Positions 7,390 through 7,576 of a DNA stretch of 53,530 nucleotides are shown here, one piece after another. The DNA comes from Gemmatimonadota bacterium. Its GTDB lineage: Bacteria; Gemmatimonadota; Gemmatimonadetes; Gemmatimonadales; GWC2-71-9. The notes beneath the pieces are model-generated. The model searched no databases. It was not told where the DNA came from and was given only the letters and a program-made list of their open reading frames with translations. A program made the translations under genes and the position numbers. Each line of letters begins with the position of its first letter. The first letter of the stretch is position 1. The stretch covers positions 1 through 53,530 of the forward strand of contig JAZDCY010000086.1 in NCBI GenBank assembly GCA_036679645.1, written 5' to 3'.

Positions 7390-7420
7390 AGGCGCTCAGG
7401 CGCTCAGGCGCTCAGGCGCA
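7390..7420 (-). repeat. 8-bp tandem array (AGGCGCTC x3 plus a partial unit), left arm of an inverted pair
   Basis: aggcgctc aggcgctc aggcgctc aggcgca; the reverse complement unit is CTGAGCGC. Confidence 0.9.
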
Positions 7421-7421
7421 A

Positions 7422-7532
7422 CTGGGATACCTAGACGACACAACTCACTCAGACCTCACCGCCATCGTCGAGGAAACGAGCAAGACACTCTTTGGTCTGC
7501 TGCGCAAGATCTCAGCCGCAGCAAATCCCTGA
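7422..7532 (+). pseudogene. C-terminal fragment of a four-helix-bundle (23S rRNA IVS protein-like) gene
   Basis: Manual translation gives LGYLDDTTHSDLTAIVEETSKTLFGLLRKISAAANP-stop, resembling the LGYL...E.S.TL.GL end of this family. No start codon or N-terminal part is present. Confidence 0.65.
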
Positions 7533-7576
7533 GCACCTGAGAAACTGAGAAACTGAGAGACTGTGTCTCTGAGCGT
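7529..7576 (+). repeat. 8-bp tandem array (CTGAGNNN x6), right arm of the inverted pair
   Basis: ctgagcac ctgagaaa ctgagaaa ctgagaga ctgtgtct ctgagcgt. Confidence 0.9.

Follow-up and report, generated by a model that had tools for sequence, protein, structure and literature searches.

A 187-bp element between mnmG and an ABC-2 family permease gene in a Gemmatimonadota genome is a relic and not a mini mobile element. It lies in the window, the 53,530-nt stretch of DNA analysed here. Our best explanation, which we hold with slightly better than even confidence, is that the element is what remains of a cassette built around a four-helix-bundle (4HB) gene, now dead, inverted and internally deleted, and that the intact cassette is likely the 'master' of gene-less hairpins dispersed through these genomes.

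The window element is a relic of a four-helix-bundle cassette

The element and its neighbours are as follows.
5531-7377, minus strand: mnmG (gidA), PF01134 at E 6.8e-135, with its 5' end frameshifted near 7333.
7385-7390, minus strand: TACTTT, predicted to be the -10 box of mnmG as a leaderless gene; it lies 7 nt ahead of the ATG and overlaps the outer end of the arm.
7390-7419, plus strand: mnmG-side arm, (AGGCGCTC)x3.75, with a T before its outer end (TAG terminal word).
7416-7532, plus strand: 4HB gene remnant (PF05635/TIGR02436), profile positions 85-119 and the stop.
7529-7576, plus strand: permease-side arm, CTGAGCAC, CTGAGAAA x2, CTGAGAGA, CTGTGTCT, CTGAGCGT, its start spanning the stop codon of the remnant.
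7577-8971, minus strand: ABC-2 family permease, PF12698 at E 8.6e-45.

The original prediction, made from the letters alone, gave the left arm four units. The repeat is real (7390-7419, 100% matches by TRF), but it runs to 3.75 copies, the fourth unit being incomplete and cut at the deletion junction. The right arm does hold the six predicted units in opposite orientation at 7529-7576, five with CTGAG and one with CTGTG, and is without the inner stem present in relatives; the TAG stop of the permease (7577-7579) abuts it and serves as its terminal word. The best inverted match between the arms pairs 7395-7416 with 7528-7549 (22 nt, 82%). About 110 bases separate the two arms and read (AQ)LGYL...LLRKISAAANP on the plus strand. 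The frame at 7416-7532 translates as AQ-LGYLDDTTHSDLTAIVEETSKTLFGLLRKISAAANP-stop and ends with TGA (7530-7532), which falls within the first unit of the right arm, as predicted. The 36-aa frame first described is also real, but it missed six residues (SAAANP) between LLRKI and the stop.

Neither Pfam nor NCBIfam gave the 38-aa peptide a family match at E <= 1, so the HMM search initially proposed fails on the fragment alone. A 4HB family search of the source genome matched four other places and not the window fragment, and an Rfam scan of 7200-7800 gave no match. By tblastn, the fragment matched same-slot genes of relatives at 48-71%, with the 71% match to the copy of the sister genome, and a profile of same-slot orthologues matched it at E 2.5e-9 over positions 85-119. 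Further matches of the remnant to the 4HB gene were obtained at E 6.7e-6 and, using nhmmer, at E 3.3e-9. In addition, the fragment was sister to the copy of genome G001 on the 4HB tree at 97/92. The same-slot orthologues exceeded the cut-offs of PF05635 (98-107 bits, cut-off 33.8) and TIGR02436 in 3 of 3 cases; PF05635 was their only Pfam match, and they are homologous to PDB 2GSC (E 2.9e-18). Judged by its sequence, the cargo is the C-terminal third of a predicted PF05635/TIGR02436 four-helix-bundle gene that is kept intact in Gemmatimonadales relatives, and the 4HB origin first proposed for it is upheld.

The window copy has lost its leader, two-thirds of the ORF and the inner stems; it retains neither start codon nor promoter and runs in the direction opposite to that of most relatives. 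In the sister genome G001 the slot copy is co-oriented and frameshifted. The missing 5' two-thirds of the window gene had no significant match elsewhere in the assembly (92.7% complete), and no other significant 4HB remnant was found in array cores or near 8-mer arrays of the source genome.

Run X1 has a Logan contig (19.7 kb, depth 101), assembled separately, that spans the element with the same core. Thus, the short core is probably not an assembly error, although run X1 is probably the source sample and its contig is not biologically independent confirmation. The intact gene for which the original prediction proposed a check of raw reads is not in this contig, and in the small-share runs X2-X4 the core was without coverage. 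The sole listed difference of the contig is 19 extra bases at 7333, inside mnmG, and the mnmG frameshift probably is an assembly error.

It could be argued that the truncation is likewise an artefact, since this apparent 19-nt error lies 60 nt away and repeats can mislead assemblers, or else that the 187-bp unit of arms and fragment is an active mini mobile element. We give these readings almost no credence. There is one copy only, the separate assembly has the same core, the copy of the sister genome is also broken, and none of the 15 listed of 18 joints in run X1 lies at the arms. The unit first taken for a mini-element is the sole inward-facing pair with a 4HB remnant, and no two cores are alike beyond the words.

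The word family of the arms forms 74 arrays in the source genome (69 after merging), whereas each of two triplet shuffles gave 0, so its abundance is more than chance. These arrays include 19 inward-facing pairs, 15 of them with cores of 9-113 bp, among which the window core is the largest. Nearly all (65/69) lie outside the interiors of long ORFs, which cover 78% of those contigs, and 16/69 begin at the stop codon of a long ORF (control, 12.5% of TAGs). A terminal TAG was found at the end of 32/69 arrays versus 15/356 inner units. A fixed TA target for the arrays was considered and not accepted; class A arms in relatives run past the TAG.

Other arrays are present in the window. The 8-mer family of the arms recurs as a lone array at 36387-36417, with no partner found within 1.2 kb. 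At 10731-10802, between convergent genes, there is a gene-less inverted heptamer pair (GATTGGA / AATCTC-type) whose word type is that of the arms around an intact 4HB gene on contig C44. A GGCGGGAC-type 8-mer is repeated four times at 18088-18120, and a 12-mer unit of the CATCGCCCCAAC type forms arrays at 25547-25578, 26957-27004 and 32818-32855. The AAGGCGGG family, related to the GGCGGGAC type, occurs at a dozen or more loci in the source genome; neither for it nor for the AATCGCC family was an adjacent 4HB gene found there.

An apparently working cassette occupies the same slot in relatives

The relatives that carry the cassette are nearly all Gemmatimonadales or Gemmatimonadota. We collected 85 distinct full cassettes, 74 co-oriented and 11 flipped, and the arms were kept around the gene in 68 of them. 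A TAnnnT motif was located 4-8 nt before the start of the 4HB gene in 46/85 (control mean 2.0), and an SD in 0. The median dN/dS of the intact gene was 0.03 over 39 pairs, which are non-independent. Because of this low ratio and the TAnnnT motif, the intact slot gene reads as a working gene under purifying selection, apparently leaderless and self-promoted. No HUH motif (0/83) and no other recognisable catalytic signature was found in the slot proteins. Other intact 4HB genes of the source genome (on C44 and C7) have 7-mer arms of their own, which recur genome-wide, and different 4HB subfamilies within one genome carry different words.

The neighbouring mnmG also has a TAnnnT motif 4-8 nt before its ATG, at 90/108 loci of the order (7.1 expected; survey loci L006-L032 and L035-L094), with an SD-like sequence at 1. 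This suggests that mnmG has its own promoter and likely has no need for read-through from the permease side.

Orientation and alleles of the cassette change at the permease-mnmG slot

We searched 250 family genomes and examined 81 mnmG loci, which were chosen mostly for strong 4HB matches, so that the counts are not population estimates. The cassette was co-oriented at 39 of these loci and flipped at 10 (49 selected carriers), the permease was adjacent with no gene between at 16, and another neighbour was present at the remaining 16. The slot was found empty, filled, flipped, broken and, in close sisters, filled by different gene lineages, and the part of the mobile-unit proposal that stands is that arms and gene are present, absent, flipped and replaced as a unit. 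In a scan of the collection, with a search biased to close relatives and one 15-residue match of 76 dropped, 73/75 subfamily loci adjoined mnmG or the permease; a few subfamily copies sit outside the slot. One slot (L014, in G005) holds both arms and a short core with no gene, a further state of decay. Another (L061, in G085) is longer by ~1.1 kb; the added DNA, which by eye resembles a transposase, separates the cassette from mnmG.

Orientation changed at least six times on the mnmG tree and at least seven times on the 4HB tree, and opposite orientations were seen in the sister proteins G000/G001, G055/G240 and G060/G165. The 5' leader inverts together with the 4HB gene. In-place inversion and re-entry in the opposite orientation have the same observed outcome at the slot, which has no room for a recombinase gene. 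None of the 15 listed of 18 joints in run X1, whose contigs drop rare variants, switches strand. Flips and deletions may be products of arm-to-arm recombination or template switching. Because the cassette apparently has its own promoter, its orientation would be without consequence for it.

The slot gene also did not follow its hosts. AU tests rejected host-genus monophyly of the gene in all three that finished (p <= 4e-4; g84, p 4e-4; g38, 4e-75; g69, 1.7e-4; g53 unfinished). Equal-length permease and mnmG controls required 13 changes (minima 10 and 12) versus 24 (minimum 12) for the 4HB gene; unlike the slot gene, the permease and mnmG pieces largely keep genera together. Cassette genes differed strongly in the majority of close pairs. 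In sisters with an mnmG identity of 0.87-0.95, the cassette gene was often at 0.60-0.74 (e.g. mnmG 0.94-0.95, cassette 0.66-0.74), and the two identities were weakly correlated (rho 0.32). Identity falls at approximately the permease stop and recovers at the mnmG start or up to ~100 nt inside mnmG. Some close pairs retain similar alleles (0.92/0.94 and 0.90/0.91), and no near-identical cassettes were found in distant genera. Taken together, the last two observations suggest that the swaps are old or local and involve old alleles passed between relatives; homologous recombination through the conserved flanks would be the simplest route.

A DNA-level element fits better than an RNA stem

The arms had also been read as an RNA stem. 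Paired with each other in a transcript of permease and mnmG, they would leave the cargo to be looped or cut out, as RNase III does with 23S rRNA intervening sequences (IVS). This design is shared with the Coxiella IVS, as far as the accessible text of PMC4990558 describes it, and the arms of relatives give a median of 37.5 Watson-Crick pairs. However, the window element folded with z of only -0.9 to -1.6. Arm mismatches in 61 co-oriented cassettes showed no RNA-strand bias (G-U 96 vs A-C 97), and in seven flipped cassettes, where 20 vs 10 favoured the operon strand, p was 0.10. A leaderless 4HB mRNA would moreover be without the 5' arm. Given the weak folding, the lack of a G-U excess and the likely separate promoter of mnmG, we find a symmetric element at the DNA level the better fit and regard the loop-out reading as very unlikely.

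Arm words follow the protein and tend to match genome-wide repeats

In the 35 of 49 cassettes whose arms could be assigned to a word class (14 could not be), the class changed 7 times on the protein tree (shuffles >= 14) versus 16 times on the host tree (shuffle mean 17.8). These comparisons show the arm word following the predicted protein lineage, not the host. We then counted words genome-wide after subtracting the arms of the cassette itself. The word matching the cassette was the commonest of three in 22/33 genomes compared with 11.3 when shuffled, and none of 10,000 shuffles was as high, although the word classes and patterns were defined after the arms were seen and the genomes are related, so that the shuffle p is overstated. 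The match is imperfect, with 11/33 genomes missing it. Within-genus contrasts between classes A and C went in the predicted direction in 9/9 cases from five genera. Those involving class B did so in only 4/9, and the class B median was the same between groups. An 'own arm is best partner' test was weak (12/47), as arms of one class cross-match.

For its own word, the source genome contains 138 matches to the GCTCAG dimer, versus 1, 0, 0 and 0 in four relatives. Among 11 slot-empty genomes, mostly from other clades, 8 have at most three word matches in all; the two richest are G005, with gene-less arms at the slot, and G011, with subfamily copies elsewhere. On these counts, the word that prevails across a genome tends to be that of its resident cassette.

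Gene-less hairpins appear to turn over between sister genomes

The dispersed pairs were ~95-130 bp long in the 20 inspected, and arms and inner stem were common to a resident cassette type. The 25 loose pairs of the source genome shared no cores beyond the words, a pattern to be expected if the population is old and its gene dead; unique cores are common too in genomes with an intact 4HB gene. Two hairpins of genome G147, at unlinked sites, were near-identical including the core, and one of them was absent from a sister. Five regions, picked for a G147 hairpin, were compared between G147 and its sister G091. Two of the hairpins were absent in G091, one was replaced by a different palindrome and one was down to one arm. 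The fifth region, a tRNA cluster, contained one shared hairpin and one spacer with each sister's own cassette word.

The spacer between tRNA Arg(acg) and Val(gac) measured 0-3 nt in five genomes and held a word hairpin in five, in a comparison in which 4/12 loci were without usable spacers and L243 was left out. In the source genome this spacer held a 143-nt hairpin of its own words, compared with 2 nt in the sister G001. Neither the target-site duplication nor the precise empty site of a MITE or IS derivative was seen by eye in the five sister-pair regions or the tRNA spacers, and the spacers look overwritten. These comparisons show hairpins gained or lost in orthologous spacers. Along the conserved tRNA cluster Arg-Pro-Arg-Val-Met-Gly-Ala (G000:C9:138760-139900; L234, L237-L242, L193 and L223), the word-armed hairpin families in the spacers differ per genome, and the cluster offers a compact record of repeat turnover.

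The 4HB protein could be a sequence-specific nucleic-acid-binding regulator, or a nucleoid or RNA-processing factor, with the arrays as binding sites that grew by slippage and selection and were not mobilised. Purifying selection and the covariation of word and protein suit such a role, as do the 65/69 arrays outside long ORFs and the 16/69 that start at a stop codon. However, whole hairpins with shared cores stand at unlinked sites and fill 0-3-nt spacers, and rapid allele replacement would orphan a regulon repeatedly. We consider a regulator with its sites quite improbable.

The arms could also be a passive seed, that is, a cis template copied by an unrelated host or transposase activity, while the 4HB gene rides along, has a host function of its own and is swapped through ordinary homologous recombination. 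Such a seed, which we judge unlikely, would explain the word-protein linkage and the swap tracts into the flanks without any role for the protein; the source genome has four Y1 transposases, and some array families have no 4HB neighbour. Against it, none of the four Y1 genes has arm words within 350 nt (the nearest array is at least 3.4 kb away), arms are kept around the gene in most cassettes, and the 4HB subfamilies of one genome differ in their words.

Discussion

We favour the view that the intact cassette is the likely master of the dispersed hairpins. Its alleles would be exchanged among relatives through the conserved flanks. Most speculatively, the protein, which is homologous to the pentameric XCC0516/Avd fold, would bind its cognate word and, together with host enzymes, would promote the copying of hairpins into spacers. 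In the source genome the gene is dead, which would leave its arrays, roughly 69 of them, as orphans. A wider proposal, which we offer tentatively and think more likely wrong than right, is that PF05635 genes play the part of 'RAYTs' in a second class of bacterial repeat system, one that works with no nuclease. Each allele would recognise its own word of 7-9 bases and drive the copying of word-armed hairpins into spacers, and allele replacement would reprogram the repeat family of the genome.

Several known systems resemble parts of this arrangement. The Coxiella IVS has terminal inverted repeats, an S23p ORF, heptamer repeats and RNase III excision in the accessible text of PMC4990558. So far as the available descriptions go, ORF-bearing 23S rRNA IVS of Coxiella and Leptospira likewise enclose a 4HB ORF in terminal inverted repeats with short tandem repeats, and the ORF decays in both systems. 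Their long complementary termini have a counterpart in 68/85 relatives, whereas the window element folds only at the z given above. Unlike these IVS, the slot cassette lies between an ABC-2 permease and mnmG and not within rRNA; its gene apparently has its own leaderless promoter, is under purifying selection and occurs in both orientations; and the cassette shows no RNA-strand pairing bias and is accompanied by dispersed gene-less hairpins.

REPIN-RAYT systems, as set out in the accessible part of 10.1101/2021.07.10.451892, also have usually one gene copy per subfamily at a fixed extragenic site with a cognate flanking repeat, which recurs as lineage-specific, ~100-bp extragenic inverted doublets. 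The slot protein differs in belonging to PF05635 and not to the HUH/Y1 transposases, and its tree is incongruent with that of the host. Furthermore, the slot arms are tandem word arrays, not REP palindromes, and the slot cassette flips.

Avd is described, in the accessible portions of 10.1101/2023.10.23.563531 and PMC10053308, as a pentameric, positively charged barrel that is similar to S23 proteins and binds DGR RNA. The slot protein is akin to this group (Avd/XCC0516) through its match to 2GSC. It differs in that the Avd model gave 20.9 bits against a cut-off of 80 in 1/3 orthologues and no match in 2/3, and no reverse transcriptase gene was seen at the slot. Candidate partners elsewhere in the genome were also tried. 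A reverse transcriptase was rejected: PF00078 was not found in the source assembly and was present in 11/46 relatives, a patchy distribution that likely reflects under-assembly. A Y1 transposase as mobiliser was rejected as well, none being flanked by arm words.

The intergenic heptamers of Xanthomonas and Nostoc are, in the accessible text of PMC4692102, also tandem arrays of a short word, often in inverted pairs near gene ends. The units here are octamers, and that text reports conserved locations, not turnover, and no link to a gene. In the openly accessible literature searched, we found no description of 4HB genes between word arrays at sites other than rRNA. The present work adds an allele-swap test, a word-tracking test and evidence against an RNA-stem role.

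The 187-bp element itself is a pseudogene relic, of value because it leads into a natural experiment. A single slot on the chromosome holds several old 4HB alleles, each with its own word, shuffled among close relatives, and thereby supplies cognate and non-cognate protein-word pairs for a binding or mobility assay. This bears on the function of S23p/PF05635 proteins and on the origin of short-word intergenic repeats. If true, the nuclease-free 'RAYT' reading would account for the unexplained heptamer and octamer intergenic repeats of many bacteria.
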